Notes: a model not told the origin generated them from the letters alone. 64,000 nt of DNA from Deltaproteobacteria bacterium (GCA_019308905.1 JAFDHF010000015.1:4978-68977), one strand, 5' to 3'; positions 7,482 through 47,221 are shown, numbered from the stretch's first letter. Numbers and translations are program-made.

Positions 7482-7504
7482 CTTATTGATCTGAAACAGA
7501 CAGC

Positions 7505-8867: not shown

Positions 8868-9762
8868 TCTCTTCTCAGGGCTCCTGTTTTCCCTGCTGCT
8901 CCATCTGGGTTTCCTGTGGTATGCGGGTCATGCCGGCCACCGGGTTGTGTCCCCGGAACCTCTTCCCACCTCGCTGAGCCTCTATGTACAGGTATCCGCC
9001 GGCCCAGGAAAGCCTACCCCCAATAAGACTCCGAAAGTCTCAACTCGGGCGCAGAGGACCTTGCAGAGGGCTCTTCCCGGGCAGGAGAGACGAACCTACC
9101 AGACGGTCAAGACCGGGGCGGCAACGGAGGCCACACCGCCAGAGGAGAGGATCTCCTTCCCGGAGCCGATCCTGAGGACCCCGGAGATCCAAAGCAGCCT
9201 CCGGTCCGGACGCCTCATCCGGAAACAACCGCTCAGACCGAAACTACCCCCTACCCTGATAAAGAAGAGCGGTCCTCTTGATGTAGAAAGGCCTTTCCCT
9301 GACCCCATGAAACGGCCCACCCAGACGTCTCCTCCCCTGGCCGGGCCTGCCGGGAACGACCCGATTTTTCCACTGGAACGCATTCTCGCCACGAGGGCTA
9401 TTCCTCATGGCCGGGGGAAGGACCCTGAAAAAGAGAACAGGGCTCTCACATCCCGTGGGGAGGGAGCCCCCCTTGTAGAGGCAGCCCCTGACTACGCGGT
9501 CAACCCCAAGCCCCGGTATCCGAGCAAGGCTATCCAAAGGGGCTATGAGGGGACGGTAACCCTCCTGGTGGAGGTTCTCGAAGATGGTTCCGTCCGGGAG
9601 ATCAGGATTGTCGGATCCTCGGGACACGGGATACTCGACAGGTCGGCTCTGAGAACGGTTCGAAAGTGGAGGTTCATTCCCGGCAAGAGGGGGGAAAAGA
9701 CCGTTGCAATGAAGGTGAAGGTGCCGATAGTCTTCAGGCTGGGAAAGGGGAAGGATGGCTAG
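8854..9762 (+). CDS. TonB-family energy transducer (Pro-rich linker plus TonB C-terminal domain)
   Basis: N-terminal TM helix, Pro-rich spacer, and a C-terminal TonB_C domain (YPSKAIQRGYEGTVTLLVEVLEDGSVREIRIVGSSGHGILDRSALRTVRKWRFIP). Confidence 0.65.
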   Translation: MMARDLFSGLLFSLLLHLGFLWYAGHAGHRVVSPEPLPTSLSLYVQVSAGPGKPTPNKTPKVSTRAQRTLQRALPGQERRTYQTVKTGAATEATPPEERISFPEPILRTPEIQSSLRSGRLIRKQPLRPKLPPTLIKKSGPLDVERPFPDPMKRPTQTSPPLAGPAGNDPIFPLERILATRAIPHGRGKDPEKENRALTSRGEGAPLVEAAPDYAVNPKPRYPSKAIQRGYEGTVTLLVEVLEDGSVREIRIVGSSGHGILDRSALRTVRKWRFIPGKRGEKTVAMKVKVPIVFRLGKGKDG

Positions 9763-10774
9763 GAAAGGGGAAGGCCGGATCCGCGCAGGCGGGCTTTTCC
9801 TCGTCTTGGGGGCTCTGCTTTTTGGAGCGGCCCACGCGGCCGCCGGGACGCGGGTCTTCACGGACGCCCTTGGAAGGGCCGTGACCATCGCCTATCCGCC
9901 CGAACGGATCGTATCTCTCGCTCCTGCTATCACGGAGACTCTTTTCGCCCTGGGCCTGAAAGACGAGATCGCCGGGGTCACCCGTTTCAGCAACTTTCCA
10001 CCGGCTGCGGTGGAAAAGCCGAGGGTCGGCTCGTACGTGAATCTCAATATCGAGGCGATCGTAAGCCTGAAACCAGACCTCATTCTGGCCACTGCCGCCG
10101 GAAATCCTCAGATCCAGGCGAGAAAGCTCCAAGACATGGGGTTCCCTGTCTATGTCGTCTATCCCAAAGACACCGATGGGGTACTGGCAACCATCCGGCG
10201 TATCGCCGAGATCGTCGGGAGAAGCGAGAGGGGCGGGGCTATCGTCCGAGACATGAGGGAGAGGATCGAAAGGATCTCTCACCGGGTAAGAGGACTCAAC
10301 AGGCCGAGGGTCTTCTTCCAGATCGGCCGGGATCCCATCTTCACCGTATCCAGGGGAAGTTTCGCCGACAATCTCATATCCCTGGCCGGGGGAGACAACA
10401 TAGCCAAGGACGCCCGTATCCCCTACCCCAGCTACAACCTCGAGGAGGTCATCCTCAAGGCCCCCGAGGTCATTATCGTCAGTTCCATGTATGTCGACAC
10501 CGACCACTCCGGGTGGCTCGAAGAGTGGAAGAGGTGGGATGTCCTGCCAGCCGTGAAGGACAACCGGCTCTACACCATCGACTCGGACCTGGTCGACCGG
10601 CCGTCGGTGCGTATCGTGGTGGGATTGGAGAAGATGGCAAGGATGATCCATCCAGAGGCGTTTCCTCCAGAGCCGTCCGATCAGAACAAGACCAGCCGGC
10701 AATACCCGGGCTTCACTGCGACCGGAGAACCTCCCCTCCGGCCCGATGAAGGGAAAATCTTGGGAAGAGAATGA
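9755..10774 (+). CDS. ABC transporter periplasmic binding protein, cobalamin/iron-siderophore family (BtuF/FhuD-like)
   Basis: Signal peptide and the class III SBP fold motif (ERIVSLAPAITETLFALG...KPDLILA). Confidence 0.7.
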   Translation: MARKGEGRIRAGGLFLVLGALLFGAAHAAAGTRVFTDALGRAVTIAYPPERIVSLAPAITETLFALGLKDEIAGVTRFSNFPPAAVEKPRVGSYVNLNIEAIVSLKPDLILATAAGNPQIQARKLQDMGFPVYVVYPKDTDGVLATIRRIAEIVGRSERGGAIVRDMRERIERISHRVRGLNRPRVFFQIGRDPIFTVSRGSFADNLISLAGGDNIAKDARIPYPSYNLEEVILKAPEVIIVSSMYVDTDHSGWLEEWKRWDVLPAVKDNRLYTIDSDLVDRPSVRIVVGLEKMARMIHPEAFPPEPSDQNKTSRQYPGFTATGEPPLRPDEGKILGRE

Positions 10775-11781
10775 TCGTCACCCTGAGAAGGTCCATCTCT
10801 GTCACCCTTGTTCTCGGAGCCGCCCTCGCTCTCGTCATGACGGCCTCCCTGTGTTTCGGTACGATTCCCATCGACCCGGGCGAAATTCTCAGGGCCCTTG
10901 TATGGAACCTCACCGGCAGGGGAGAGTCTAGCATCCGCGATACCATCATCATCTCAATCCGGCTGCCCCGCGTGCTTCTCGCCGCACTTGTGGGCGGAGC
11001 CCTCTCCGTGGCCGGCTCGATCTTCCAGGCTCTCTTGAGAAACCCTCTGGCCGATCCGTACATTCTAGGGGTGTCGAGTGGGTCAGCAGTTGGGGCGGTC
11101 TTGGCGATGATGCTGGGCTTGGGCGCCATGTCATTGGGGCTCCCCCTGGCCTCTTTTGCAGGTGCACTTGGAACCGTGCTCCTCGTGTTCAACGTGGGCA
11201 GGATGGGCCGGCGGGTCCACACCAACACCCTGCTTCTCGCGGGAGTGATCATCAATGCCTTTTTCGGGGCCGTGCTCATGTTTCTCATCTCCATCTCCCG
11301 CCATGAAGCCCTCCACACGATAGTCTTCTGGCTCATGGGGGATTTCAGCTTTGCCGACTTTGCCGGCGTAACTCTGATCTTTCCTTATGTCGTAACAGGA
11401 ATCTCCCTGGCCTATCTGCTCGCCAGGCGACTCAATCTCCTGGTTGCAGGCGAAGACGAGGCGATCCAACTCGGCGTGGACGTGGAACGGGTGAAGAAGT
11501 CGGCCTACGTGCTGGGGTCTCTGATCACCGCCGCGGCTGTCTCTGTCTGCGGGTTGATCGGCTTTGTGGGTCTCATGATCCCTCACATGGTCAGATTGGT
11601 TCTCGGGCCTGATCACCGGCTCCTCATCCCCGCATCATGCCTCTGGGGTGCCGCCTTTCTGGTGATCTGCGACACATTGGCTCGGACGATTCTCGCTCCC
11701 ATAGAGCTTCCCGTAGGGGTGATCACCTCGGCCTTCGGCGCTCCTTTTTTCATATACCTCTTGAAGACTCGAAGCATCTGA
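10771..11781 (+). CDS. FecCD-family ABC permease (BtuC-like)
   Basis: 336-aa polytopic membrane protein of FecCD family 10-TM architecture. Overlaps its neighbours by 4 nt. Confidence 0.8.
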   Translation: MIVTLRRSISVTLVLGAALALVMTASLCFGTIPIDPGEILRALVWNLTGRGESSIRDTIIISIRLPRVLLAALVGGALSVAGSIFQALLRNPLADPYILGVSSGSAVGAVLAMMLGLGAMSLGLPLASFAGALGTVLLVFNVGRMGRRVHTNTLLLAGVIINAFFGAVLMFLISISRHEALHTIVFWLMGDFSFADFAGVTLIFPYVVTGISLAYLLARRLNLLVAGEDEAIQLGVDVERVKKSAYVLGSLITAAAVSVCGLIGFVGLMIPHMVRLVLGPDHRLLIPASCLWGAAFLVICDTLARTILAPIELPVGVITSAFGAPFFIYLLKTRSI

Positions 11782-11787
11782 TCGGCC

Positions 11788-12576
11788 ATGATTGAGGTGG
11801 AGAACGTCTCATACCGGTACAACGAGGATTGGGTACTGAGGAATCTCAGTTTCTCGGTCCAGAAGGGGGACTTCCTCGGGATCGTAGGCCCCAACGGCAC
11901 GGGCAAGACAACCCTGCTGAAGCTCCTTTACAGATTGATGCGGCCCCAGCAGGGAAGGGTGATCATCGACGGGGTCGATCTGGAAAGGATGGGAAGAAAG
12001 GAGATATCCAAGAAGGTCGCCGTCGTGAGTCAGGAAACGCAGATCAACTTCCCCTTCATGGCGCTTGAAGTGGTACTCATGGGGAGGTCTCCCCATCTGA
12101 AGGGGCTTCAATTCGAGAGCAAGAGGGATTTTGAGATCGCCACAAAGGCCATGGAGGCGACCGATACCATCCGTATCTCCGACAGGCCTTTCAACCAACT
12201 CAGCGGAGGTGAGAAACAGCGCCTCTTTATTGCCCGCGCCCTGGCCCAGCAGACAGACATCATCCTGTTCGACGAGCCCACCGCAAACATGGATATTCGC
12301 CACCAGATCGCCTTCTACGACTTGACAACCACCCTCAACCTGGAGAGAAGGATCACCGTCGTAATAGTGAGCCACGATATCAACCTTGCAGCAGAATTCT
12401 CCAAGACCGTGTTGCTCATCAACGAGGGGAGCATTTTCGCCCTTGGAAAGCCCGGAGAGGTAATCACAAAGGCAAACATAGAGGCGGTCTACGGAACCCC
12501 GGTCCTGGTGGATCAGAACCCGGTAACCGGTGCTCCTCGCGTGACACTCCTGAGGAAAGAGGCCCGCCGCCTGTAG
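11788..12576 (+). CDS. ABC transporter ATP-binding protein (BtuD/FepC-like)
   Basis: Walker A GPNGTGKTT, signature LSGGEKQR, Walker B ILFDEPT, H-loop SHD. Confidence 0.8.
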   Translation: MIEVENVSYRYNEDWVLRNLSFSVQKGDFLGIVGPNGTGKTTLLKLLYRLMRPQQGRVIIDGVDLERMGRKEISKKVAVVSQETQINFPFMALEVVLMGRSPHLKGLQFESKRDFEIATKAMEATDTIRISDRPFNQLSGGEKQRLFIARALAQQTDIILFDEPTANMDIRHQIAFYDLTTTLNLERRITVVIVSHDINLAAEFSKTVLLINEGSIFALGKPGEVITKANIEAVYGTPVLVDQNPVTGAPRVTLLRKEARRL

Positions 12577-12624
12577 GTAAATCCGAAGGAAAGTTTCGGC
12601 CCGGCGCTCGCGACTCGACATGAG

Positions 12625-12667
12625 TTGACAAAACCGGCGACGGGATTATAATGGTTTAACCATTATG
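12625..12667 (+). promoter_or_regulatory. Promoter (TTGACA-16-TATAAT) with a perfect 19-bp palindrome ATAATGGTTTAACCATTAT overlapping the -10 and the start codon; probable GntR autoregulatory operator
   Basis: Read directly from sequence: ttgacaaaaccggcgacgggattataatggtttaaccattatg. Confidence 0.45.
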
Positions 12668-13402
12668 AAACCGGCAGATCAGATCTTTCATCAGGCCAAG
12701 CAGAGTCGGGCCTTCCAAAACGTAATCGATCAGATCCAGGAAGCCATCCTCCAGGGCAAGCTCAAGGCCGGGGACAGGCTGCCAGGGGAGCGGGAACTGA
12801 AGGAGGCCTTCAAGACCAGCAGGGGGACCCTTCGGGAGGCCCTGCGGGTATTGGAGCAGAAAGGACTCATCACCATCAAGACCGGCGTCGGCGGCGGGCC
12901 CATCGTGAAGGCCGTAACCACCCGCCAGGTGACAGAAAGTCTGGCCCTACTGCTGAGATACCAGAAGGTCTCCCTTAGAGACCTCGCCGAATTTCGAGAG
13001 GGTGTGGAGGGAATCGTTACCGGCCTTGCCGCGGAAAGGGCCGAACAGAGAGACATAGAGCATCTGAGAGACCTGCTGGCAAAGGCAAAGGCCCACCTTG
13101 AGGGGGGAGTCTCCGAGTGGGATGAGTTTATCCAGGTCGACAATGCCCTGCACCTCGAGCTCGCCCGGATAGCCAGGAACCCGGTATACGAATCGGTCCT
13201 GCAGACGGTCCATGAGAATATCAACCAGTACTACGAACGCTACCTGCCAAAGAGCGAGAAGAACATGAAAGAGAACTACCAGGATCTATGTGAGATCGTT
13301 AAGGCTGTGGAAGAGAGGCAGGCGACAAAGGCCCGCCTTCTTGCCCAGGAGCACGTAAAACGGTTCAACAGATTCATGGAATCCGAGTCTCGCCCTTCCT
13401 GA
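12665..13402 (+). CDS. GntR-family transcriptional regulator, FadR/FCD subfamily
   Basis: N-terminal GntR wHTH (LPGERELKEAFKTSRGTLREALRVLEQKGLI) and a C-terminal all-helical FCD domain. Immediately upstream of the proline-catabolic genes. Confidence 0.8.
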   Translation: MKPADQIFHQAKQSRAFQNVIDQIQEAILQGKLKAGDRLPGERELKEAFKTSRGTLREALRVLEQKGLITIKTGVGGGPIVKAVTTRQVTESLALLLRYQKVSLRDLAEFREGVEGIVTGLAAERAEQRDIEHLRDLLAKAKAHLEGGVSEWDEFIQVDNALHLELARIARNPVYESVLQTVHENINQYYERYLPKSEKNMKENYQDLCEIVKAVEERQATKARLLAQEHVKRFNRFMESESRPS

Positions 13403-13479
13403 CTCTTGCCGGGAGGTTCGCCGGGAAGGAGCCGGAAGGCTCGACCCGGGTGTAAAGATTCCAGGGAAAGGAGCTTGCC

Positions 13480-15114
13480 ATGGCAAACGCGAAATACACC
13501 ATACCCATGCCGCCGAACGAGCCGGTTGGGACCTATGCTCCTGGCACGCCCGAACGGGAGGCGGTCAAGGCCGCACTGGCGCGACTAAGAAACCAGCACA
13601 TCGAGATTCCCCTCTTGATCGGAGGGAAGGAGGTGAGGACCGGGAGAGTGGCCGAATGCCTCCTCCCCCACGACCACAAGACCGTGATAGGAACCTTTCA
13701 TCAGGCAGGGCCGAAAGAGGTGGAGATGGCCATCGAGGCTGCCATCAAGGCCCGAAAGGATTGGGCGGCCATGGACTGGCACGATCGAATCGCCGTTTTT
13801 CTAAAAGCCGCCGACCTTCTTTCCGGGCCGTGGCGGGCGGTTCTCAACGCTGCGACCATGCTCGGCCAGAGCAAGACCGTCTTCCAGGCCGAGATCGACT
13901 CCGCCTGCGAACTGATCGACTTTTTCAGATTCAACGCTTACTATGCCATGCAGATCTTTGAAGAGCAGCCTCCATACTCTCCCCGGGAAATGTGGAACCG
14001 GATGGAATACCGCCCCTTGGAGGGATTCGTCTTCGCCGTGACCCCCTTCAACTTCGTGTCGATAGCAGGAAACCTTCCCTCTTCTCCCGCCATGGTCGGT
14101 AACGTCTCCCTTTGGAAGCCGGCTTCCAATGCCGTCTACCCCGCCTATCACCTCATGAGACTCTTCCAGGAAGCCGGACTCCCCGAAGGTGTGATAAACT
14201 TCATGCCAGGGCCCGGCAGCCAAGTCGGACCCCTTGTGCTCGCCTCGCCCCACCTGGCCGGAATCCACTTCACCGGCAGCACCGAGACCTTCCGGGCCAT
14301 GTGGAAGACGGTGGGAGAGAATATCAAGGGCTACAGATGCTATCCCAGAATCGTTGGAGAAACAGGAGGCAAGGACTTCGTTGTCGCCCACCCGAGCGCC
14401 GACGTGAAGGCCTTGGGCGTGGCACTCATTCGGGGTGCCTTCGAATACCAGGGCCAGAAGTGTTCTGCAGCCTCGAGGGCTTATATCCCCAGGAGCATCT
14501 GGGGGGATCTCAGGGACTTCATGGTCAGTGAGCTGAAGACCGTGAAGATGGGAGACGTGGAGGACTTCACCAACTTCATGACCGCAGTCATCGATCGCGG
14601 GGCTTTCGCCAAGATCAGCGGTTACATCGAGTCGATCAAGAAATCCAGCGAAGCCGATCTCGTCTTTGGAGGAGGCTGCGACGACAGCAGGGGATTCTTT
14701 ATCGAGCCCACTGTCGCGGTCACCACCAATCCCAGATTCCGCACCATGGAGGAGGAAATCTTCGGTCCCCTCCTCACTGTCTACGTCTACGAGGATGACA
14801 AGTACGAGGAGACCCTGCGTCTCTGTGACGAGACCTCGCCTTACGGTCTGACAGGAGCGGTCTTTTCTCAGGACCGCCGGGCCCTTGCAAAGGCCGAGAG
14901 GATCCTGGTGAACGCGGCAGGCAACTTCTACATCAACGACAAGCCGACGGCGGCCGTGGTCGGCCAGCAGCCTTTTGGAGGCAGCCGTGCAAGCGGGACC
15001 AATGACAAGGCCGGAAGCCTGTGGAACATGCTCCGGTGGGTGAGCCCGAGAGCCATAAAGGAGAATTTTGTTCCCCCCCTGGACTATCGCTACCCGTTCA
15101 TGGAGGAAAAGTAG
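13480..15114 (+). CDS. Delta-1-pyrroline-5-carboxylate (L-glutamate gamma-semialdehyde) dehydrogenase, ALDH4-type
   Basis: 544-aa ALDH superfamily protein with catalytic Cys and Glu motifs (FEYQGQKCSAASR, IVGETGGKDF). Length and motifs are typical of stand-alone P5CDH. Confidence 0.85.
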   Translation: MANAKYTIPMPPNEPVGTYAPGTPEREAVKAALARLRNQHIEIPLLIGGKEVRTGRVAECLLPHDHKTVIGTFHQAGPKEVEMAIEAAIKARKDWAAMDWHDRIAVFLKAADLLSGPWRAVLNAATMLGQSKTVFQAEIDSACELIDFFRFNAYYAMQIFEEQPPYSPREMWNRMEYRPLEGFVFAVTPFNFVSIAGNLPSSPAMVGNVSLWKPASNAVYPAYHLMRLFQEAGLPEGVINFMPGPGSQVGPLVLASPHLAGIHFTGSTETFRAMWKTVGENIKGYRCYPRIVGETGGKDFVVAHPSADVKALGVALIRGAFEYQGQKCSAASRAYIPRSIWGDLRDFMVSELKTVKMGDVEDFTNFMTAVIDRGAFAKISGYIESIKKSSEADLVFGGGCDDSRGFFIEPTVAVTTNPRFRTMEEEIFGPLLTVYVYEDDKYEETLRLCDETSPYGLTGAVFSQDRRALAKAERILVNAAGNFYINDKPTAAVVGQQPFGGSRASGTNDKAGSLWNMLRWVSPRAIKENFVPPLDYRYPFMEEK

Positions 15115-15200
15115 GCAGGCCGTTTCCACGGCACATGATCCGTGGCCGGCCCCATAACCGACGGTGAAACCCGATTCGGACCGTCAGGAAGCCTGACCGG

Positions 15201-17504
15201 ATGGGAGAATCGATCCGCATAAAGGGAGGAAAGCCTTTTCGAGTAGAGCCGATCAAGGCCTCTCCCTGTTCTGTGGAATGCCCCTTGGGAACCAACGTTA
15301 AGGCCTATGTATCCCTGATCGCCGCAGGACGGTTTGCCGAGGCCCTCGAAGTAGTACGCCGGACCAATCCTTTCCCGGGCATCTGCGGAAGGGTCTGCCC
15401 CCACCCCTGCGAGGACGAATGCCGCAGGAGAGAGATCGATGCACCGGTGTCGATCGCGGCCCTCAAACGATTCATAGCCGACTACGAGCTACGCCATGGC
15501 CTGCTGCCGCGGCTAAGGGCCCAGAAGAAAGACCGTGGCAGGGTCGGCGTGATAGGGGCCGGTCCGGCAGGGCTCACCTGTGCCGCGGACCTGGCAAGGG
15601 AGGGATACAGGGCGACCGTTTTTGAAGCCCTGCCCGTCGCCGGTGGTATGATGGCTGTAGGTATTCCACCCTATCGCCTCCCCAGGGAGATTCTTAGAAC
15701 CGAGATCGGGGCTATCGAAGCATTGGGAGTTGATCTCAGGTTGAACGAGCGGGTGGGCGAACGGGTCGGATTCGATGATATAGTCCGGGATTTTGATGCG
15801 GTGTTCATCGCAACAGGTGCCCAGAAACCGCGGGGGCTGGGCGTGCCAGGCGAGAGGGATGTCCGCCATGGGCTGGTGGACTGGCCTGCCCTGCTACGGG
15901 ACGTCTCCTTCGGGTGCGCAAAGAGGCCCGGGGAGAGACTGGTAGTTGTAGGCGGGGGAAATACCGCAGTGGACGCGGCACGGGTGGCCCTCCGTCTCGG
16001 TACCAGGGAGGTAAGGATCGTCTACCGCCGATCCCGCGATGAAATGCCCGCCTACAGAGAGGAGGTGGCCGATGCCCAAGCGGAAGGCATCGAGATCGAC
16101 TTCCTCGCGGCCCCGGTAAGGCTGGTGGTGGAGGGGGGACGGTTGAGGGGCGTCGAGTGTGTCCGGATGCGGCTCGGCAAGAGGGACGAGACCGGCCGCC
16201 CCCGGCCTGTACCGGTCAAGCACTCGGAGTTTGTCATCCCCTGCGATGCCCTCATCCCGGCGATCGGCCAGGAGTTCGACAGATCTTTCTTGGGCGTGAG
16301 GCATGGATTGAGAATCTCGGGGAAGAATCTCCTTGTGGCCGACCCTCTCACCATGGCCACCGACCGTGAAGGCGTCTTCGCGGGCGGCGATGCCATAACA
16401 GGCCCGGCCAGCGTGGTGGAGGCCATCGCCTCCGGCCACCGGGGGGCCCGCTCAATCGGCAGATACCTCCGGGGGCTTCCCCTCGAATCGCCTTCAGAGA
16501 GAATCTCCCCAGAGACGGAGGAACTGACCCTGGAGATTCCACCCCCGCCAAGGACCGTCCGAATCTCAGGATCCCGGCTCTCCCCCGAGGAGAGACGGAC
16601 CTCCTTTGAAGAGATAGAAAGGGGATTGACAGAGACAGAAGCGGTAGCCGAAGCCGAGCGGTGCATGCGGTGTGGGCTCTGCATGGAGTGTACGGAATGC
16701 CTGGCCCTCTGTGAGGGGAGACAGGCGATTCTCGAATCCACCCCTTTCGTCCCAACAGAGAGGCTGAAGCAGCCGGGAATACTCGTCCGGGTGCCACCGG
16801 GGCTGCACCGAGAACTTGCGACCCGGGGCAGTGTGCCCGTTCGATATCGAGCCCGGCCGCACGAGATGTCCGTCTTCACAGCCGTGGTCGATCCCGAACG
16901 GTGCAGGGGCTGCGGCTTGTGCGAAGAGACCTGCGGTTACCGGGCCGCACGGGTGCTCTACCAGGGCGGCGGGGTCTTCACCGCCAGGGTCGACCAGGAG
17001 ATGTGTCGCGGATGCGGGGCTTGCGTGGCCGTCTGCCCCTCCGGGGCGATGGGGCAAAACCTCTTCACCCCTGACCGAATCGATCGCCTGGTCCATGCCC
17101 AAATCGAGCAGAGCAAGGGGAGGCGGCCGGTCGTTGTGTTTGCGTGCCGGTGGAACCCGGCGCTCAGACTGGAACGTGCCAGACGGACGGCCGAAGTGAT
17201 CGAGGTCATGTGTACTGGAAGGATCACAGGGGGAGAAGTGCTGAGGGCATTCGAAAGGGGGAGCCAGGGTGTGTTGGTCATCGGTTGCACCGAGCAGGAC
17301 TGCCACTACGGGTTCGGCAGAGCCAGGGCAGAGGAGAACCTCCGGCGTGTCAGCCAGGTCCTGTCACTCCTGGGGATAGAGACCAGCCGCCTTCGTACCG
17401 TCCAGGCCCCGATCGAAGGAGCCCTGGATCTGGCCGAGCTCGTGGAGGATTTCATCTCTGAGATTTCGAGCCTGGGAACCAATCTCACGGGTGGATCGAA
17501 TTGA
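15201..17504 (+). CDS. Fusion of a GltD-like NAD(P)H-dependent FAD/Fe-S oxidoreductase, 2x[4Fe-4S] ferredoxin and an MvhD-like domain
   Basis: N-terminal Cys clusters (CPLGTN...CGRVCPHPCEDEC), a GxGxxG FAD/NAD domain (VIGAGPAGL, VVGGGNTAVD), ferredoxin motifs (CMRCGLCMECTEC, CRGCGLCEETC, CRGCGACVAVCP) and a C-terminal MvhD-like segment (VVFACRWN...GCTEQDCHY). Confidence 0.75.
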   Translation: MGESIRIKGGKPFRVEPIKASPCSVECPLGTNVKAYVSLIAAGRFAEALEVVRRTNPFPGICGRVCPHPCEDECRRREIDAPVSIAALKRFIADYELRHGLLPRLRAQKKDRGRVGVIGAGPAGLTCAADLAREGYRATVFEALPVAGGMMAVGIPPYRLPREILRTEIGAIEALGVDLRLNERVGERVGFDDIVRDFDAVFIATGAQKPRGLGVPGERDVRHGLVDWPALLRDVSFGCAKRPGERLVVVGGGNTAVDAARVALRLGTREVRIVYRRSRDEMPAYREEVADAQAEGIEIDFLAAPVRLVVEGGRLRGVECVRMRLGKRDETGRPRPVPVKHSEFVIPCDALIPAIGQEFDRSFLGVRHGLRISGKNLLVADPLTMATDREGVFAGGDAITGPASVVEAIASGHRGARSIGRYLRGLPLESPSERISPETEELTLEIPPPPRTVRISGSRLSPEERRTSFEEIERGLTETEAVAEAERCMRCGLCMECTECLALCEGRQAILESTPFVPTERLKQPGILVRVPPGLHRELATRGSVPVRYRARPHEMSVFTAVVDPERCRGCGLCEETCGYRAARVLYQGGGVFTARVDQEMCRGCGACVAVCPSGAMGQNLFTPDRIDRLVHAQIEQSKGRRPVVVFACRWNPALRLERARRTAEVIEVMCTGRITGGEVLRAFERGSQGVLVIGCTEQDCHYGFGRARAEENLRRVSQVLSLLGIETSRLRTVQAPIEGALDLAELVEDFISEISSLGTNLTGGSN

Positions 17505-18637
17505 CTAGTGTAGAGGACCTTGCCGGTCAGTGCAACATCCAGGCTGTAAGAAAAGACGCGGAGAAGCTGAACGCCGCCTGCCCCGTGGCCAGGGTCAATC
17601 CCGGATTTTCACCTGAGAGAATCGCCAACCTTTCGGAAAAGGACCCGCCGGGGCTTATCCGGAGCCCTCTTGTCTGGGAGTGCCTCACCTGTCACCTCTG
17701 CCGGGAGATCACGAGGGGGCAGGTGGACATGTCCCGGTTTGTACGTGATGTGCGGCAGATGGCAGTGAAGGCGGGATTTCGCGGGACAGAAACCCATGGG
17801 GGCATTCTCATCACCGCACAACGGTTGAACGCCAGAACCGGATTGAAACCCAGCCGGACCGACTGGATCGCCCCGCCCCTGAGGGTCAGGTCGAAGGGAG
17901 GGGAGTATCTCTATTGGGTGGGAGGCGCTCCCTTTTTCGCAGCAGTGATGCCGGACCTGAGACCAACACCGCTGGATTCTGCACGTGCGGCCATCGGCCT
18001 GCTCAACAGGGTGGGGATCGAGCCGATCGTCCTCGAAGACGAACGGTTTTCCGGACACGACCTCCTATGGACCGGCGAAGCCGAGCTGTTCCGGACCCTG
18101 GCGGAACAGAATCTCCAGGCCATCAAGCGGTCCGGGGCCAAGGTTGTGATCGTCTCCTCACCGGAGGACTACTACACCCTGGCCGAAAGCTACGGGGAGT
18201 ATTGCGGCGGGCTGGACTTCGAGGTGTTTCACATCACCGAGATCCTCGCGAGCCGCCTGTCAGGGCTGGAGTTTGGAGAATGGCAGGAGCGGGTGACCTA
18301 TCATGACCCCTGCCGGTTGGGCCGCGGCATGGGTGTCTACGAGCCACCCCGGCAGATCCTCTCTGCCGTGCCGGGCCTGGAACTCGTTGAAATGGAAAAC
18401 ACGAGGGAGTTTTCCCTCTGTTGCGGAACATCCTGCTGGACCAACTGCAGGGGGTATTCCAAACTGATTCAGGTCAACCGGCTCAGAGAGGCCGCTGCAG
18501 CCGGTGCTCAGTCCCTTGTCACGACCTGCTGGGAGTGTATCCTGCATTTCCGCTGTGCCACGCGTCCCGAGGCCTGGCGCCAGGTCTTTGTGGAGGTCAA
18601 GGATCTCCTTGGTCTCCTTGCGTCACGGCTGCATTGA
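17501..18637 (+). CDS. HdrD/GlcF-like Fe-S oxidoreductase with CCG domains
   Basis: CxxC...C motifs (CLTCHLC) and two Cys-rich CCG-type segments (HDPCRLGRG, SLCCGTSCW, TTCWECILHF). Confidence 0.7.
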   Translation: MTSVEDLAGQCNIQAVRKDAEKLNAACPVARVNPGFSPERIANLSEKDPPGLIRSPLVWECLTCHLCREITRGQVDMSRFVRDVRQMAVKAGFRGTETHGGILITAQRLNARTGLKPSRTDWIAPPLRVRSKGGEYLYWVGGAPFFAAVMPDLRPTPLDSARAAIGLLNRVGIEPIVLEDERFSGHDLLWTGEAELFRTLAEQNLQAIKRSGAKVVIVSSPEDYYTLAESYGEYCGGLDFEVFHITEILASRLSGLEFGEWQERVTYHDPCRLGRGMGVYEPPRQILSAVPGLELVEMENTREFSLCCGTSCWTNCRGYSKLIQVNRLREAAAAGAQSLVTTCWECILHFRCATRPEAWRQVFVEVKDLLGLLASRLH

Positions 18638-18642
18638 CAGGC

Positions 18643-20754
18643 ATGGGAAGGATAGAAAAACACCCGATTCTGCCGATTCCCGAGGGGAGGGACGTCCCAT
18701 TTGTGTTCGACGGGCGCCCCATCACGGCAAGACACGGCGAGGTCATCTCCTCGGCCCTGTTCGCCCATGGAATCCGGGTATTCGGCCGTCACCCCCGGGA
18801 CGGAGCGCCTCAGGGTATCTACTGTGCAAACGGGCAGTGCTCCCAGTGCATGGTCATCGCCGACGGATTGCCGGTCAAAGCCTGCATGACCGTGGTCAAA
18901 CCGGGAATGGTGGTCCAGAGGTGCGAGGGGAGTCCAGAGAACCCCCGGGACGACACGCTGCCGGAAATGGCCGATGTACCCACCGTGGAGGTGCCTGTCC
19001 TCATCGTCGGCGGCGGACCTGCCGGGCTTTCCGCCGCCATAGAACTCGCCAAATTCGGGGTCCCCGCCATCCTTGCAGACGACAAACAGAGACTGGGCGG
19101 AAAGCTCACCCTTCAGACCCACAACTTCTTCGGTTCCAGAAGGGATTGTTATGCAGGAACGCGGGGTATCGATATCTCCACCCTCCTCGCGGACCGGTTG
19201 AGTGAAGAAGGCCGAGATCTCGTGGAGGTCTGGCTCGACTCTCCGGTGGTGGGGGTCTTCTGTGATGGAAAGCTCGGTGTTGTGAAACAGGGCGAGTATG
19301 TCCTGGTCAAGCCGGAGGCCTTGCTCGTAACCGCAGGAGCACGGGAGAAAGCCCTGGCCTTTCCGGGTTGCGACCTGCCGGGAGTGTATGGGGCCGGTGC
19401 CTTTCAGACTCTTGTCAACCGGGATCTCGTCCGTCCCACCGACCGGCTCTTCATATGCGGCGGGGGGAACGTGGGCCTTATCGCAGGCTATCACGCCCTC
19501 CAGGCAGGTATCGACGTGGTAGGGCTGGTCGAGGCCCTCCCCCGGTGCGGGGGATACAAGGTCCACCTGGACAAATTGAAGAGGCTCGGCGTTCCCATCT
19601 TCACGTCCCACACGATCCTCCGGGCAGAAGGAGACGGAAAGGTCGAAAGGGTGACCATCTGCAGGATAGACGAGTCCTTTCGACCGATCGCCCAAACCGA
19701 GAGGTCTTTCCCGGTGGATACCCTCCTGATCGCCGTGGGTCTCTCACCCGTCAACGAGATCTACACCAAGGCAAAGGAGTATGGATACAGGGTATGGGCC
19801 GCCGGAGACGCGGAAGAGATCGCCGAGGCGAGTGCAGCCATGTTCAGCGGCCGGATCCAGGGAAGGAGAATCGCCAGGGAACTCGACAGGCCCTGTCTGA
19901 TCCCCAGGGAGTGGGATGAGATCCTCACCATCCTGCGGAGCAAACCGGGGGTGGAGAAGGAGTTGAAGATCCGCACCCTTCCAGGCTCGGTCTACCCGTT
20001 GATACGTTGCACCCAGGAGATACCGTGCAATCCCTGTACGGAGGCCTGTCCCAAACACGCCATCAGGATCGAGGAGGGAACACTTACAGGGGTCCCCTCA
20101 TTTACCGGTGACGCCTGCCTGGGATGTGCCCAGTGTGTTCTTGCGTGCCCGGGGTTGGCGATCGTCCTTGTGGACGAGCGTTACGACCCGGCTCGCAGAC
20201 GGGCCCTCCTAACCCTACCCTTTGAAATGCCCTCTGGAACCGTCAACGTGGAGGACGAGGTGAGGACCGTAGGGATGGAGGGGGAGCCCGTAGGGGCGGG
20301 AAGGGTCGTCGCCTTCCGGGACGCGCCCTCCCAGGATCGCAGGAGATTGATGCTTCTCGAGGTACCCTTTGAAGATCGCCTCAGGGTCGCAGGGGTTCGG
20401 CTCAGAGAAACGGTCGAACCCGAAAAGGCCGATCCCCCGGAACAAGAGGAAGATACCATTATCTGCCGGTGTGAAAGGGTGACCAAGGGGGAGATTCTCG
20501 CATTGATCCGGGCGGGGTATCGCGACATGAACCAGATCAAGGCCGCTCTCCGTACCGGAATGGGAGCCTGTGGCGGCAAGACGTGCACGGAACTTATCCT
20601 TCGACTCTTCCGCGAAGAGGGCATAGACTTGAAAGAGGTGACCCTGCCGGTCCACCGACCGCCTGAAACGGAAGTCCCCCTCGGGGTTTTTGCAGGAGTG
20701 AAGCTCAGATCGGAAAAAAGGGCGAACACCAGGAGAGAGAGAAACCAGGGGTGA
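18643..20754 (+). CDS. Sarcosine-oxidase-alpha / PdhA-like FAD-NAD(P) oxidoreductase with N-terminal [2Fe-2S], 2x[4Fe-4S] and a C-terminal BFD-like [2Fe-2S] domain; putative L-proline dehydrogenase large subunit
   Basis: The start was reassigned to ATG 18643, immediately after the upstream stop at 18637; the listed ORF start at 18421 is an in-frame overlap. Motifs: GQCSQCMV, two GGGxxG dinucleotide folds, CNPCTEACP, CLGCAQCVLACP and a BFD-like ICRCERV...GMGACGGKTC. Confidence 0.65.
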   Translation: MGRIEKHPILPIPEGRDVPFVFDGRPITARHGEVISSALFAHGIRVFGRHPRDGAPQGIYCANGQCSQCMVIADGLPVKACMTVVKPGMVVQRCEGSPENPRDDTLPEMADVPTVEVPVLIVGGGPAGLSAAIELAKFGVPAILADDKQRLGGKLTLQTHNFFGSRRDCYAGTRGIDISTLLADRLSEEGRDLVEVWLDSPVVGVFCDGKLGVVKQGEYVLVKPEALLVTAGAREKALAFPGCDLPGVYGAGAFQTLVNRDLVRPTDRLFICGGGNVGLIAGYHALQAGIDVVGLVEALPRCGGYKVHLDKLKRLGVPIFTSHTILRAEGDGKVERVTICRIDESFRPIAQTERSFPVDTLLIAVGLSPVNEIYTKAKEYGYRVWAAGDAEEIAEASAAMFSGRIQGRRIARELDRPCLIPREWDEILTILRSKPGVEKELKIRTLPGSVYPLIRCTQEIPCNPCTEACPKHAIRIEEGTLTGVPSFTGDACLGCAQCVLACPGLAIVLVDERYDPARRRALLTLPFEMPSGTVNVEDEVRTVGMEGEPVGAGRVVAFRDAPSQDRRRLMLLEVPFEDRLRVAGVRLRETVEPEKADPPEQEEDTIICRCERVTKGEILALIRAGYRDMNQIKAALRTGMGACGGKTCTELILRLFREEGIDLKEVTLPVHRPPETEVPLGVFAGVKLRSEKRANTRRERNQG

Positions 20755-21917
20755 ACAGGAACTACGACGCGATCATCATCGGCGGGGGAAGTGTAGGTGT
20801 TCCCGCAGCACTCTTTCTCACCTTTGAGGGCCTCAGGGTCCTGGTTGTCGAGGCGAACCCGTCGGTAGGCCAGGGGCAGAACAAGGCAGCCATTGGAGGA
20901 GTCCGGGCCACCCACTCGGATGCGGCAAAGATCCTTCTCTGCCAGGAGAGCCTCCGCATCTTTGGCGAGTGGGAGGAGACGTACGGCCACGATATAGGAT
21001 GGAAGAAAGGAGGATACTGTTTCCCCGCATACACCCACAAAGAGGAAAACACCCTCAAAGGCCTCCTCCCGATTCAGAAATCCTACGGCCTCAAAATCGA
21101 TTGGCTCGACCCGGAGGAGATCGAAGACGTCGTACCCGGTATCAGGGCAGAGGGACTGATGGGGGGTACCTTTTCACCTGACGACGCCCAGGTCTCGCCT
21201 CTTTTGGCGATAGACGCAATGTTCCGTTTGTCGAAAGAACGAGGGTGCGCCTATCGTTTCGGGGAGAGGGCGGTCGCCCTTGTGACCGAGAAGGGCCGGG
21301 TGAAGGGCATCACGACAGACAGGGAGACCTACAATGCCCCCGTTGTACTGAACGCGGCCGGGGCAAGTGCAATGGAGGTGGGGAAGCTGGCTGGAATCGA
21401 CGTTCCCGTCATGCCGGACAGTCACGAAGCAGGCATCTCTGCACCTATGGAACAGTTCTTAGGCCCCCTGGTCGTCGATCTCCGGCCAGGACCGGAAGGC
21501 AAAACCTCCAACTTCTATTTTGCACAGAATCATGAAGGGGTCCTGATCTTCTGCTACACTCCCATTGAACCCGTCTGTGGAACCAACCGGGAGCCGACCT
21601 CCGAGTTCCTGCCGGTGGTTGCCAGGCGGTTGATCGGTCTGCTGCCCCGCCTGAAGAACATGCTGGTACGCCGCGTATGGCGGGGACTCTATCCCATGAC
21701 GCCGGACGGCCTCCCAATATGCGACAAGGTGCGGGAACCGGAGGGCCTGTATCTTGCCGTGGGCATGTGCGGCCAGGGATTCATGATGGGCCCCGGCATA
21801 GGCCGAAACATGGCCCACCTCATCGTCCACGGAAGCCCGCTGATAGCAGAGGACACATTTGAAACTCTCAGCCTCTACCGCGATTTCTATGCTTCGAAGA
21901 AAGAGGCTCTCAAATAG
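20751..21917 (+). CDS. FAD-dependent oxidoreductase of the DadA/SoxB family; putative catalytic L-proline dehydrogenase beta subunit
   Basis: N-terminal DAIIIGGGSVGVPAALFL Rossmann motif in a 388-aa protein typical of sarcosine oxidase beta or archaeal PdhB. GTG start overlaps the upstream stop (GTGA). Confidence 0.7.
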   Translation: MNRNYDAIIIGGGSVGVPAALFLTFEGLRVLVVEANPSVGQGQNKAAIGGVRATHSDAAKILLCQESLRIFGEWEETYGHDIGWKKGGYCFPAYTHKEENTLKGLLPIQKSYGLKIDWLDPEEIEDVVPGIRAEGLMGGTFSPDDAQVSPLLAIDAMFRLSKERGCAYRFGERAVALVTEKGRVKGITTDRETYNAPVVLNAAGASAMEVGKLAGIDVPVMPDSHEAGISAPMEQFLGPLVVDLRPGPEGKTSNFYFAQNHEGVLIFCYTPIEPVCGTNREPTSEFLPVVARRLIGLLPRLKNMLVRRVWRGLYPMTPDGLPICDKVREPEGLYLAVGMCGQGFMMGPGIGRNMAHLIVHGSPLIAEDTFETLSLYRDFYASKKEALK

Positions 21918-22015
21918 TCCAACATGCTCCTCAGGGTGACTTTGGAGAGGGAGCCCTTCTTTTTCGCTCTGGTCAGGGGAGTAAGGCAGGCTGGGAAAGG
22001 CGCCCACGGGGGATC

Positions 22016-22942
22016 ATGGAAACTTCGGAAAAAGACGGGAATTCAGGAAAGAAGATCCTTGTCGTGGATGACGAACCGCTCGTCCGGCGCACCATCCGGG
22101 ATATCGTCGAATCGATGGGATACTCCTGCAGCGAAACCGATTCGGCCCGGGCCGCTCTCGAGCTTGTAGACCGAACCCACTTCCCCATCGTCATCCTCGA
22201 CATCGCCATGCCCGAGATGAACGGCCTGGAGCTGCTCGAGCTTATCAGGAGAGAGCATCCTGACACGGACGTCCTGATCATTACGGGGTACCAGGACAGA
22301 TATTCCCCTCTCAGGATCGTCCGGTCAGGAGCCAGTGATTACCTGGTCAAGCCCTTCACCGTGGAGCAGCTCGCCGCGAAGCTCTACAAGATCGAAAGGG
22401 AAAAGGCCTTGAAAGAGAAACTCTACCTCAGTTCCATCACCGACGAGTTGACGGGTCTCTACAACCGGAGGTTCTTCTACCAGAAGCTGAGACAGGAGAT
22501 GGAAAGGGCAAAGAGGCAGGGCCGCGTGCTCTCCTTGATCATGTTCGACGTGGATGGATTCAAGAGATTCAACGATCGATACGGCCATCTGAAGGGGGAT
22601 GTCCTTCTCCAGACCGTGGCCCGGGTTCTTCGATCCTCCCTCAGAGAACACGTGGACTCTCCCTGTCGGTACGGTGGAGACGAGTTCATCGTCATCCTCC
22701 CCGAGGCAGACGGGAAAATAGCCCGATCGATCGGGGACCGAATAAGGAGGAACTTCAAAGAGAAATCTCCGGGTGGGATGACCCTCAGCATGGGAGTCGC
22801 ACAGTTCCGGAAGGATTTCGACACAGAGGCCTTTGTCCGCCTGGTCGACCAGAGGATGTACAGGGACAAGAACAGATCGAGACAGCGCCGCTCCGAACCG
22901 AGAGGAGACAAGCCCGGCACGGACAAGGAAGGGGCTGCCTGA
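22016..22942 (+). CDS. Response-regulator receiver fused to a GGDEF diguanylate cyclase (PleD-like)
   Basis: REC domain (ILVVDDEP...D at ILDIAMP...K) and a GGDEF domain with YGGDEF and an RxxD I-site-like context. Confidence 0.85.
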   Translation: METSEKDGNSGKKILVVDDEPLVRRTIRDIVESMGYSCSETDSARAALELVDRTHFPIVILDIAMPEMNGLELLELIRREHPDTDVLIITGYQDRYSPLRIVRSGASDYLVKPFTVEQLAAKLYKIEREKALKEKLYLSSITDELTGLYNRRFFYQKLRQEMERAKRQGRVLSLIMFDVDGFKRFNDRYGHLKGDVLLQTVARVLRSSLREHVDSPCRYGGDEFIVILPEADGKIARSIGDRIRRNFKEKSPGGMTLSMGVAQFRKDFDTEAFVRLVDQRMYRDKNRSRQRRSEPRGDKPGTDKEGAA

Positions 22943-23002
22943 GAAGAAGACCATGAGAACCCTCTCCCCCCTTCTGTCGTACCCGGGGCCGGGCCGGACG
23001 AA

Positions 23003-23734
23003 CTACCTGTTTGCATACCGCCCGAACAGGGGCCCCGCTACCAGCAAGGTGCCGATCAAGAACCCCACCCCGGCTCCAACGGGTATCCATAGCGATTGAA
23101 AATACGACCGTCCCTCGATGCCGTACCGGAGGAGCTCCACCACGTAGGTGAGGGGTGAGGCCATGGCGACGGGTTGGACCCAGGCCGGCAGGAGATCCAG
23201 GGGCATGAAGACACCACTGATGAAGAGGATCGGGAATCTCAGGAAGTTCATCAGGGTCATCGCCTCAAAGACCTCCCTCACCATCACAGATGCGATGAGC
23301 CCCATGAGGGAGAATATCCCTGCTCCGAGGAGGAGGCCGGCGCCGAAGACCAGAGGATTGGCCACTCTCATGCCGAGCAGAAAGGCAAGCCCCCACGTGA
23401 TAACAAGAGAGGTGGCGACGCCATAGGCCGCCGCACTGGCAGCCTTGCCCAAGACGATAGTGCCGTTGGTGACGGGCGCCAGCAGGAGCCTCTGCAAGGT
23501 GCCGGACCGTTTCTCAAAGGTTACGACGATGGCTGCCATTGATGTATTTCCAAAAAGCAGGGTCATGGCGATAATTCCAGGGGCCACGGCCAGATACGTG
23601 GCCGGATCCTTTACGTAGACGGCAAACATCAGCACAGCCGGGAAAAGGAGCCCCCACGTGATCAGGGGTGGTTTGCCGTAGTAGCTCTCAATGTCCTTCA
23701 GGCTGATCGAGACGGCTTTGCTCAACTGATTCAC
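23003..23734 (-). CDS. ABC-2 type transporter permease
   Basis: 243-aa protein with 6 predicted TM helices of ABC-2 topology; translationally coupled to the upstream ATPase. Confidence 0.7.
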   Translation of the reverse strand: MNQLSKAVSISLKDIESYYGKPPLITWGLLFPAVLMFAVYVKDPATYLAVAPGIIAMTLLFGNTSMAAIVVTFEKRSGTLQRLLLAPVTNGTIVLGKAASAAAYGVATSLVITWGLAFLLGMRVANPLVFGAGLLLGAGIFSLMGLIASVMVREVFEAMTLMNFLRFPILFISGVFMPLDLLPAWVQPVAMASPLTYVVELLRYGIEGRSYFQSLWIPVGAGVGFLIGTLLVAGPLFGRYANR

Positions 23735-47213: not shown

Positions 47214-47221
47214 TTGATTCC

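Follow-up and report, generated by a model that had tools for sequence, protein, structure and literature searches.

A candidate NADP(H)- and ferredoxin-coupled proline/P5C oxidoreductase encoded with Nfn-, MvhD- and HdrD-like modules in a deltaproteobacterial operon

The DNA analyzed here (the window) is a 64,000-nucleotide (nt) stretch whose listed source is a Deltaproteobacteria metagenome-assembled genome (MAG), and all positions given are those of the whole stretch. Behind a gene for a GntR/FCD-family regulator, it carries a compact set of five genes (~8.4 kb, soluble products) encoding a Δ1-pyrroline-5-carboxylate (P5C) dehydrogenase, a 767-residue GltD-like flavoprotein with an MvhD domain, an HdrD-like CCG-domain protein, and two subunits, α and β, related to the heteromeric L-proline dehydrogenases (PDHs) of Thermococcales (Table 1). 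All six genes lie on the + strand, essentially where an initial annotation of this DNA had placed them, and Pfam and NCBIfam profile searches agree with the domains that it had assigned to the five proteins. We tentatively propose that the operon encodes a soluble, NADP(H)- and ferredoxin-coupled proline/P5C oxidoreductase that works by confurcation or bifurcation; we regard this as a real possibility, though one to which we give somewhat less than an even chance. Complex formation, the substrate, the electron path, confurcation and its direction are what we infer from the sequences.

The β subunit (Pfam DAO, 207 bits) has its best match in the Protein Data Bank (PDB) in chain 1y56_B, the β subunit (PH1364) of the L-proline dehydrogenase of P. 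horikoshii, with E = 5e-48 over residues 6–368, that is, near full length; the next matches, DMGDH, SoxB and glycine oxidase, stand at 5e-20 or weaker. It keeps the Arg-X-Trp motif of the FMN site in the form R-V-W, a motif listed for this β family by Watanabe et al. (PMC4575208), and is presumed to be the proline-oxidizing subunit. The α subunit combines, according to Pfam, a Fer2_4 [2Fe-2S] domain, a two-Rossmann Pyr_redox_2 domain, a 2×[4Fe-4S] domain and a BFD [2Fe-2S] domain. Its best PDB sequence match is 1y56_A (PH1363; 9e-21), and its AlphaFold 2 (AF2) model (pLDDT 88.4) retrieves the same chain first in Foldseek (E = 2.5e-30, TMt 0.80), ahead of SoxA. In 44 homologs, all 16 Fe-S cysteines are invariant, as are the glycine motifs of the two dinucleotide folds. 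The start of α was set at ATG 18643; a mechanical open reading frame (ORF) from 18421 was rejected, since the homologs begin at the former position and the extra part overlaps the CCG gene.

The initial annotation had left these subunits between sarcosine oxidase and proline dehydrogenase in name while favoring the latter, and the kinship with the Thermococcales enzyme is borne out by the PDB ranking. Sarcosine oxidase was rejected, the scores being 126 bits on TIGR01372 (SoxA; cut-off 1164) and 87 bits on TIGR01373 (SoxB; cut-off 529). The hallmarks of the heterotetrameric sarcosine oxidases, namely a GCV_T domain, soxD and soxG, were absent from the window genes in the Pfam searches. Glycine oxidase and D-amino-acid dehydrogenase were likewise rejected on NCBIfam scores far below cut-off together with the PDB ranking. 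In the sequence and fold features open to testing, α and β agree with the heteromeric L-proline dehydrogenase family. A proline dehydrogenase (PRODH) barrel of the PutA type (PF01619) is not encoded, as there is no Pro_dh match in the operon, the P5C dehydrogenase is unfused and transmembrane segments are lacking. Indeed, a check for hydrophobic segments found no plausible transmembrane helix in any of the five products, on which ground a membrane or quinone link was rejected.

What the pair oxidizes is probably L-proline, to judge from its kinship with 1Y56 and from its partners. With 791 bits, the P5C dehydrogenase exceeds the 613.6-bit cut-off of the NCBIfam equivalog TIGR01236. An alignment of the fused α was scanned against a collection with one genome per species, which yielded at least 582 loci, and the fused α is also encoded by thousands of metagenomic proteins. 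The best 80 loci come from Spirochaetota, Thermoplasmata, Syntrophomonadaceae, Myxococcota, Chloroflexota, Bipolaricaulota, Acidobacteriota and one Heimdallarchaeon, and β adjoins or follows α in 69 of them, the remainder being mostly cut by a contig end. A P5C dehydrogenase more than 45% identical to that of the window adjoins in 17 of the 80, including archaeal (Thermoplasmata) loci in which its gene is divergently oriented. ProC is a neighbor in five of the 80 species loci and in locus L002, where a glycyl-radical enzyme, hydantoinase A/B-type genes and proC-proA-proB are found; two Bipolaricaulota loci have a gene of the proline-racemase family directly upstream; L014 and L020 carry a class-III (ornithine-aminotransferase-like) aminotransferase with a glycyl-radical enzyme; a prolidase-type peptidase (Creatinase_N/M24) follows β in L087; and the genes upstream in L001 include an SSF symporter and a Liv-type ABC system.

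We also considered that α/β might oxidize another secondary amine (hydroxyproline, an opine, sarcosine or other N-methyl amino acids, or pipecolate), with the P5C dehydrogenase handling a related semialdehyde. The β subunits of PDH, opine dehydrogenase, D-hydroxyproline dehydrogenase and HCN synthase form one family with shifting specificities, β of the window is only moderately identical to the one solved PDH, and the glycyl-radical enzymes near some clusters may be hydroxyproline dehydratases. Moreover, Bradyrhizobium opine dehydrogenase type 2, of a subfamily close to the archaeal L-proline dehydrogenase β subunits, shows no activity on proline (PMC4575208). Nevertheless, we think this improbable. 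The P5C dehydrogenase is above its equivalog cut-off and recurs beside α/β in both bacteria and archaea in varied arrangements; proline racemase, ProC and prolidase are among the neighbors; the match to 1y56_B is 28 orders of magnitude better than that to any other solved DAO-family enzyme; and Pfam and NCBIfam turned up no genes or domains related to opines, sarcosine or folate.

The second component of the proposal is the 767-residue protein. It is composed of Fer4_20 (residues 19–99), Pyr_redox_2 (114–412), a six-cysteine motif (488–504), a 2×[4Fe-4S] domain (567–616) and FlpD/MvhD (644–759). The GltD-like domain carries the GGGNTA and YRR motifs, which from general family knowledge we take to be of the NADPH type; YRR, G251 and G253 are invariant in 43 homologs. 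Its best PDB sequence matches are Csac NfnA (6e-128) and StnC, followed by T. maritima NfnB (4ylf_B, 1.5e-94) and P. furiosus NfnL (5jca_L, 2.8e-89), and the AF2 model (pLDDT 89.3) gives the same order in Foldseek, with NfnA/StnC on top and then NfnB. Superposed on NfnB/NfnL, the model shows a TMt of 0.80–0.81 and a root-mean-square deviation of 2.1–2.4 Å at 39–40% identity, as compared with 31–34% identity to GltD; sequence and fold comparisons taken together, the domain is 38–40% identical to NfnB/NfnL. Of the six cysteines typical of NfnB/L, four are invariant and two at least 90% conserved in the 43 homologs, and all 28 cluster cysteines of the protein are either invariant or at least 90% conserved. 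The MvhD domain (FlpD, 87 bits) matches MvhD chains at 2e-12 to 3e-11, one value being 4e-12, and its Cys649, Cys671, Cys696 and Cys701 are invariant.

The same searches reveal what the operon does not encode. HdrA, the bifurcating FAD subunit with a thioredoxin reductase (TrxR) fold, is absent from the operon proteins by NCBIfam; the C-terminus of the 767-residue protein (555–760) matches the HdrA2 C-terminus with 140 bits against a cut-off of 1100, and this match covers only the ferredoxin plus MvhD part. No gene for NfnA/S, the FNR-like FAD/[2Fe-2S] subunit that handles NAD(H), was found in or near the operon, and the FMN core BfuB/BfuC (NuoF/NuoE-like) is absent from the operon and its immediate flanks. 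Thus, the description of the acceptor side as made of Hdr-, Mvh- and Nfn-type modules holds for the NfnB/L-like NADPH module and the MvhD domain, but not for HdrA and NfnA/S.

The third component, annotated at the outset as an HdrD/GlcF-like CCG Fe-S protein, is indeed HdrD-like but degenerate. Its best match is 9ojn_A, an iron-sulfur-binding reductase (6e-18), followed by HdrC (4e-4), with TfrB in NCBIfam; Pfam recognizes CCG only at residues 265–351. In the window and the close orthologs, the cysteines of the first ferredoxin motif, the Cys-Pro of the second motif and those of the whole first CCG domain are lost, the last being replaced by VGGAP, ERFSGHD and SSPED in the window, L001, L002 and L005. 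What remains is one ferredoxin-type set (C27, C61, C64, C67) and one intact C-terminal CCG domain. Homologs linked to 2-oxoacid:ferredoxin oxidoreductases keep all these cysteines in the alignment. The decay has gone further in L022, where the CCG-like protein has no Pfam match and its conserved cysteine ligands are gone while the cluster is still kept. A true heterodisulfide reductase was rejected because HdrA is absent and the first CCG site is lost, and a function as a disulfide reductase appears unlikely; most likely, the degenerate protein serves as a wire or scaffold.

The arrangement of the genes suggests that these components belong together. As first described, the five are co-directional and tightly spaced, two of them overlapping the stop of their neighbor; counted from the regulator, the successive gaps are 77, 86, −4, 5 and −4 nt. 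In the overlaps, a TTG start lies over a TGA stop at the CCG gene, and the junction at the β gene is GTGA. A sigma-70-type promoter with a perfect match, the only one within 12400–23200, precedes the regulator gene, and a palindromic candidate operator overlaps its −10 box and the regulator start codon (Table 1). No terminator-like sites were found in the intergenic gaps (there are 12 inside genes, as compared with 9.3 expected from shuffles), no internal promoter or terminator signals within the operon rise above chance, and Rfam and tRNA scans of the window gave no match inside it. A TGGTnnnACCA palindrome is located 16–43 nt upstream of the GntR gene in seven of eight related loci (L001, L002, L007, L087, L089, L009 and L061) and is degenerate in the eighth, L010. 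Its conserved form, AATGGT(N3)ACCATT, spans loci from other phyla and different samples, and it is kept even in two Spirochaetales loci devoid of the GltD/CCG module. Orthologs of the regulator (45–72% identity) occupy the same position in L001, L002, L007, L009, L010 and L061, and Pfam identifies a GntR/FCD gene at that upstream position in L087 and L089. The palindrome is therefore probably the operator of a GntR/FCD regulator family for proline utilization. Given one promoter, a conserved operator and no internal signals above chance, the six genes look like one autoregulated operon.

Further support comes from conserved synteny. We read the context of ten homologs of the 767-residue protein. 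Six of these, at 50% identity or more, all reside in the same cluster: P0003 (62%), P0023 (55%, a Spirochaetaceae chromosome), P0040 (50%, Chitinivibrionales), P0042, P0044 and P0046. The order is P5C dehydrogenase, GltD/MvhD, CCG, α, β, with GntR ahead where the contig allows; the P5C dehydrogenase precedes the module wherever the contig reaches, the contig of P0040 opening with the GltD/MvhD gene. P0044 encodes GltD-MvhD and CCG as a single fused chain of 1146 residues. Three more homologs, at 41–43% identity, all follow a four-subunit 2-oxoacid:ferredoxin oxidoreductase and are followed by a complete HdrD-like protein, and one from Cloacimonetes (pair homologs at 41–44%) has a separate MvhD gene and no recognizable redox partner adjoining. 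Whether the GltD-MvhD/HdrD pair also occurs beside unrelated genes, which had been raised as a point that could undo the proposal, therefore depends on the distance: not at 50% identity or above, where every case examined is proline-linked, but it does at 41–43%, beside 2-oxoacid:ferredoxin oxidoreductases. The latter cases imply that the cassette is portable and not specific to proline; its proline-linked form is, by sequence, an orthologous group of its own.

The paralogous cassette is encoded at L003:7005-13574 (Fidelibacterota), L004:7105-15990 and L090:5053-14188. L004 and L090 also have, after the complete HdrD-like protein, a split HdrA-like/MvhD pair consisting of an FAD protein and a Fer4/MvhD protein. 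This oxidoreductase-linked cassette may be an uncharacterized Hdr-type NADPH/ferredoxin complex.

Seen from α, the picture is broader. Sixty-eight of the best 80 loci have enough upstream sequence to be evaluated, and in 32 of these an NAD(P)H-flavoprotein/MvhD module lies directly upstream of α. Twelve modules are of the GltD type, 16 of the NuoEF (Bfu) type, three are both, and one locus shows the CCG gene alone at a contig end. The NuoEF-type module consists of a NuoE-NuoF fusion plus a NuoG-like/MvhD protein and comes without a CCG gene; the NuoEF core lies upstream of α in 19 loci, for example L014 and L022. This core, the alternative partner of α in other lineages, is of the BfuBC type (PMC9304861). 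In a neighbor-joining tree of α, the module types form clades. In nine loci, the NuoG-like part, MvhD and the whole of α are one ORF of ~1300 residues. It appears from these comparisons that two unrelated NAD(P)H-flavoprotein modules have been recruited repeatedly through MvhD, sometimes by fusion to α. On comparative grounds, the repeated recruitment and the fusions argue strongly for MvhD as a domain that docks on α and connects it with a pyridine-nucleotide site.

Several of these loci deserve description in their own right. The MvhD-α fusions are found at L014:5772-13241 and in L012, L020, L024, L036, L037, L038, L044 and L051; seven of the nine are from Syntrophomonadaceae or other Bacillota, and L038 is labeled Myxococcales. 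There, a NuoE-NuoF fusion (~795 residues) precedes the ~1300-residue ORF, and β follows, often with ProC. Such Bfu-type fusion clusters perhaps encode a bifurcating P5C reductase. At L022:3450-13221, as in L015 and L028, eight genes encode NuoE, NuoF, a Fer2_4/Fer4 protein, GltD-Fd, a separate MvhD, a CCG relic, α and β; on gene content, these three clusters are in effect a Stn/NfnABC-like set attached to a proline dehydrogenase. In the Chloroflexota loci L058:9989-13417, L078 and L081, α and β are apparently one ORF of ~1130 residues with no redox module nearby. A third type of module was not found in the module-less loci L040, L058 and L060, where Pfam recognized only unrelated neighbors, for example Lon, methylases, transporters, a glycosidase and an AMP-ligase.

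These data bear directly on the possibility that the genes are adjacent without forming a joint complex, such that GltD-MvhD/CCG is an independent, co-regulated redox balancer of the ferredoxin:NADP+ type while α/β uses a separate carrier. This would fit the pair homologs at 41–44% identity that sit beside 2-oxoacid:ferredoxin oxidoreductases or, in Cloacimonetes, without a recognizable redox partner, and the half of α/β loci that have no module at all. On the other hand, it leaves unexplained the nine MvhD-α fusion proteins, the α/β linkage of every examined homolog at or above 50%, the translational coupling that ties the module directly to α/β, the loss of cysteine ligands specifically in the proline-linked CCG clade, and the congruence between module type and the α tree; we consider it very unlikely. 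The earlier suggestion that the five genes are one functional unit is supported by the synteny in all close homologs examined, the fusions, the conserved operator and that same congruence.

How might such a unit work? The midpoint potentials set the frame: about −120 to −123 mV for P5C/proline, −320 mV for NAD(P)+/NAD(P)H and −420 to −500 mV for ferredoxin. With a donor couple near −120 mV and an acceptor at −320 mV, proline alone cannot reduce NAD(P)+ or ferredoxin and would have to be joined by a second donor. If proline is the donor, confurcation is the only mode that makes thermodynamic sense; the alternative is bifurcation in the direction of P5C reduction. Since the operon looks catabolic, having a regulator, an irreversible P5C dehydrogenase and soluble proteins, confurcation would be the sensible coupling.

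We therefore propose confurcation in a proline-to-glutamate pathway whose first enzyme would be a soluble multi-flavin, multi-Fe-S complex. The FAD of β would oxidize L-proline to P5C, and the electrons would pass through α, probably by an interface FMN as in 1Y56 and then the [2Fe-2S] and [4Fe-4S] clusters and FAD. From there, the clusters that the HdrD-like protein has kept and the [2Fe-2S] cluster of MvhD would lead them to the NfnB-like flavoprotein, which would reduce NADP+. Low-potential electrons from reduced ferredoxin (Fd) would enter by one of the two 2×[4Fe-4S] ferredoxin-like domains, and confurcation would occur at a flavin, being either the NfnB-like FAD or the TrxR-fold FAD of α in place of HdrA. 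For both flavins there are relatives to consult: the solved relatives of the first include bifurcating NfnB/L as well as the non-bifurcating NADPH entry domain NfnA, and the second sits in a TrxR-type fold with an inserted 2×[4Fe-4S] domain that is reminiscent of HdrA. The overall reaction would be proline + Fd(red) + 2 NADP+ → P5C + Fd(ox) + 2 NADPH, reversible and near equilibrium, and the P5C dehydrogenase would pull it by irreversible oxidation to glutamate. The GntR/FCD protein would control the whole unit from one promoter and operator. In clusters with ProC, a glycyl-radical enzyme and an aminotransferase but without the P5C dehydrogenase, the same machine may run in reverse as an energy-conserving P5C reductase. 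The potential of P5C/proline is close to that of the heterodisulfide couple (−140 mV; PMC9304861), the high-potential leg of Hdr-Mvh, and by analogy the scheme resembles Hdr-Mvh logic run backwards with NADPH in the place of H2. The window also encodes a tungsten-type aldehyde:ferredoxin oxidoreductase, a class II ribonucleotide reductase and ThyX, enzymes consistent with a ferredoxin-using anaerobe.

Several points weigh against this proposal. First, standard potentials make confurcation marginal: it is slightly endergonic except where ferredoxin is well reduced and the level of P5C stays low. Second, the operon lacks a ferredoxin gene, and no site at which ferredoxin would dock was recognized in its products. 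Third, with neither HdrA nor NfnA/S, both canonical bifurcating architectures are incomplete, and the HdrD-like subunit is degenerate. Fourth, 36 of the 68 evaluable α/β loci have no module within 10 kb, which means that the core enzyme works without one. Fifth, there is the precedent of a close PDH-β relative, the aforementioned Bradyrhizobium enzyme, that does not use proline. Lastly, among solved relatives the GltD-like domain scores best against NfnA, which in the Bfu-type NfnABC is the NADPH entry module and not the site of bifurcation (PMC11829005).

The last point lends itself to another account, in which the module is coupled to α/β and electron transfer is non-bifurcating. The enzyme would then be a downhill, NADPH-driven P5C reductase, or a bifunctional proline/NAD(P)H dehydrogenase feeding a common acceptor, which could be a ferredoxin- or rubredoxin-like protein, a thiol/disulfide at the remaining CCG site, sulfur or oxygen. 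The PDH complex of Thermococcus profundus reportedly has such bifunctional proline/NADH dehydrogenase activity. Besides the kinship with an NADPH input module, the retention of one CCG domain with all its cysteines agrees with this account, as does the second invariant dinucleotide fold of α (GxGxxG...E), which could itself bind NAD(H); and the ProC, glycyl-radical enzyme and aminotransferase genes of L014 and L020 suggest contexts in which P5C is consumed. As to a P5C reductase, however, the partner in the window consumes P5C irreversibly, which makes the operon look like proline catabolism, and the small ProC already carries out the downhill reaction, so that ~11 Fe-S clusters and three flavins are hard to justify. 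As to an acceptor at the CCG site, the L022 cluster is retained with its CCG-like protein stripped of ligands, and the NuoEF-type clusters do without the gene. Overall, we rate non-bifurcating transfer as rather unlikely, yet deserving attention.

A variant of the confurcation proposal, which we consider more speculative and unlikely, places the coupling in the fused α/β core itself. The core would then represent an unrecognized flavin-based bifurcating family in which α, its TrxR-fold FAD flanked by the inserted 2×[4Fe-4S] domain and two [2Fe-2S] clusters, takes the role of HdrA, proline/P5C is the high-potential leg, and NfnB- or BfuBC-like modules are swapped between lineages by way of MvhD.

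For strict anaerobes that lack PutA, quinones and external acceptors, we know of no established explanation of where the high-potential electrons from proline oxidation go. If the confurcating or bifurcating complex proposed here is real, an amino-acid couple would join the short list of substrates for flavin-based bifurcation and confurcation, the ‘dye-linked’ archaeal proline dehydrogenases would gain a physiological electron acceptor, and NfnB-like and BfuBC-like NAD(P)H modules would be seen as cassettes swapped by MvhD adaptors. If the α/β core bifurcates, anaerobic proline oxidation or energy-conserving P5C reduction would be a new and widespread mode of ferredoxin-linked coupling in bacteria and archaea. 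The annotation of many MAGs would change, α being now labeled ‘sarcosine oxidase’ or ‘FAD-dependent oxidoreductase’, and so would models of amino-acid fermentation and syntrophy, the family being large and phylogenetically broad.

Table 1. Genes and candidate transcription signals of the operon, in window coordinates.
Feature	Position	Strand	Basis
Sigma-70-type promoter, TTGACA-16 nt-TATAAT, 12/12 matches	12625-12652	+	ahead of regulator gene
Palindromic candidate operator, core ATAATGGTTTAACCATTAT, containing TGGTTTAACCA at 12652-12662	12641-12673	+	inverted repeat
GntR/FCD-family transcription regulator	12665-13402	+	Pfam GntR 67 bits, FCD 72 bits
P5C dehydrogenase (L-glutamate gamma-semialdehyde dehydrogenase), ALDH4 type	13480-15114	+	TIGR01236, Pfam Aldedh
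NfnB/GltD-like NADPH-FAD protein with MvhD domain, 767 residues	15201-17504	+	Pfam, NCBIfam, PDB matches
Degenerate HdrD-like CCG protein, 378 residues	17501-18637	+	Pfam CCG, alignment
PDH-α-like flavo-Fe-S subunit, 703 residues	18643-20754	+	Pfam, 1y56_A, AF2/Foldseek
PDH-β-like FAD dehydrogenase (DAO fold), 388 residues	20751-21917	+	Pfam DAO, 1y56_B

The rest of the window gives the genomic setting. A B12 uptake locus directly precedes the operon; in it, a cobalamin riboswitch (RF00174, 89.8 bits; 7499–7729, + strand) stands ahead of ExbB-ExbD-TonB (7668–9762) and a BtuF/C/D-like ABC transporter (9755–12576). The class II ribonucleotide reductase, which is B12-dependent, is encoded at 3393–6113 (− strand). 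The tungsten-type aldehyde:ferredoxin oxidoreductase (AFOR_N, AFOR_C; 56653–58473, − strand), which as a predicted enzyme indicates a ferredoxin-based anaerobic metabolism, has GFO/IDH/MocA and zinc-ADH oxidoreductases and an FGGY kinase as neighbors, with an L-fucose-isomerase-like gene downstream. Between 34000 and 44000, the G+C content drops to ~0.50 from 0.57–0.60 elsewhere. This stretch contains a second GntR/FCD regulator (34787–35629), a CN-hydrolase (36408–37307) and an Opp/Dpp-type peptide ABC transporter, and may be a laterally acquired island for amide or peptide utilization; after the transporter come a 2-oxoacid dehydrogenase complex (E1ab/E2/E3, 43988–48616), a glyoxalase-family protein and an amidase. 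On the + strand, a response-regulator/GGDEF diguanylate cyclase (22016–22942) begins 98 nt downstream of β, and a PilZ-domain protein is encoded at 28389–29843; neither gene is conserved in the related loci, and there was no sign that they belong to the operon. The sole tRNA of the window is a tRNA-Thr (TGT) at 26559–26630 (− strand).

Compared with known systems, the closest relatives of α/β are the heteromeric dye-linked L-proline dehydrogenases of Thermococcales, that is, PDH1 of P. horikoshii (α4β4, 1Y56) and the αβγδ complex PdhA/B/F/X of T. profundus. They share the DAO-fold β with Arg-X-Trp, the two-Rossmann α and the adjacency of the genes. Here, in contrast, the system is bacterial and mesophilic, α has [2Fe-2S], 2×[4Fe-4S] and BFD domains fused to it, and the pair is encoded with a P5C dehydrogenase and an NADPH-flavoprotein/MvhD/CCG module. 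The fused Fe-S domains are presumably the counterparts of small Fe-S subunits that are separate proteins in the αβγδ type. The archaeal enzymes have been assayed with dyes, and their physiological acceptor is not known. Proline racemase genes are neighbors in some of our loci, as they are in Thermococcus clusters (PMC4364671). Relative to PutA or PRODH plus P5C dehydrogenase, the steps from proline through P5C to glutamate and the ALDH4 family are the same, whereas PF01619, the membrane/quinone link and the fusion to P5C dehydrogenase are missing.

On the acceptor side, NfnAB (NfnSL) and NfnABC/StnABC share the NfnB/L-like, NADPH-binding FAD domain with two [4Fe-4S] clusters, and L015, L022 and L028 carry NuoE, NuoF, NuoG-like and GltD-like proteins together, as in Stn/NfnABC. 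Unlike these, the window has neither NfnA/S nor a NuoEF core, the partner is a proline dehydrogenase attached by MvhD and the CCG protein, and the third substrate would be proline/P5C and not NAD(H). HdrABC-MvhADG resembles the operon in the MvhD [2Fe-2S] cluster, the 2×[4Fe-4S] region like that of the HdrA2 C-terminus, the HdrC/HdrB-like (HdrD-type) CCG protein and a high-potential couple of similar potential (about −123 as compared with −140 mV). It differs in that the operon has no HdrA, its first CCG site and one ferredoxin site are unligated, no hydrogenase or thiol cofactors are implied, and NADPH would be the mid-potential partner. HdrB and HdrD possess two CCG domains, each with a non-cubane [4Fe-4S] cluster, whereas the protein of the window has one intact domain. 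A parallel in logic is the lactate dehydrogenase/EtfAB complex of Acetobacterium woodii, a soluble enzyme in which reduced ferredoxin assists the oxidation of a substrate too oxidizing for NAD+. The confurcation logic in an anaerobe would be the same, but the proteins are unrelated (Etf and GlcD-type), and the acceptor there is NAD+ whereas here it is probably NADP+.

The initial annotation had held this gene combination to be undescribed, and that appears to be so: in the open-access full-text literature, we found no description that links a proline dehydrogenase or P5C with Hdr, MvhD, Nfn, Bfu or bifurcation, and proline is mentioned neither in a survey of the Bfu family nor in one of HdrA diversity. 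Judged by its sequences, the operon system would work like the Hdr-Mvh, NfnAB or Bfu complexes without being a member of any of them; the modules are known, and what is apparently new is the substrate couple and the way in which the modules are wired to it.

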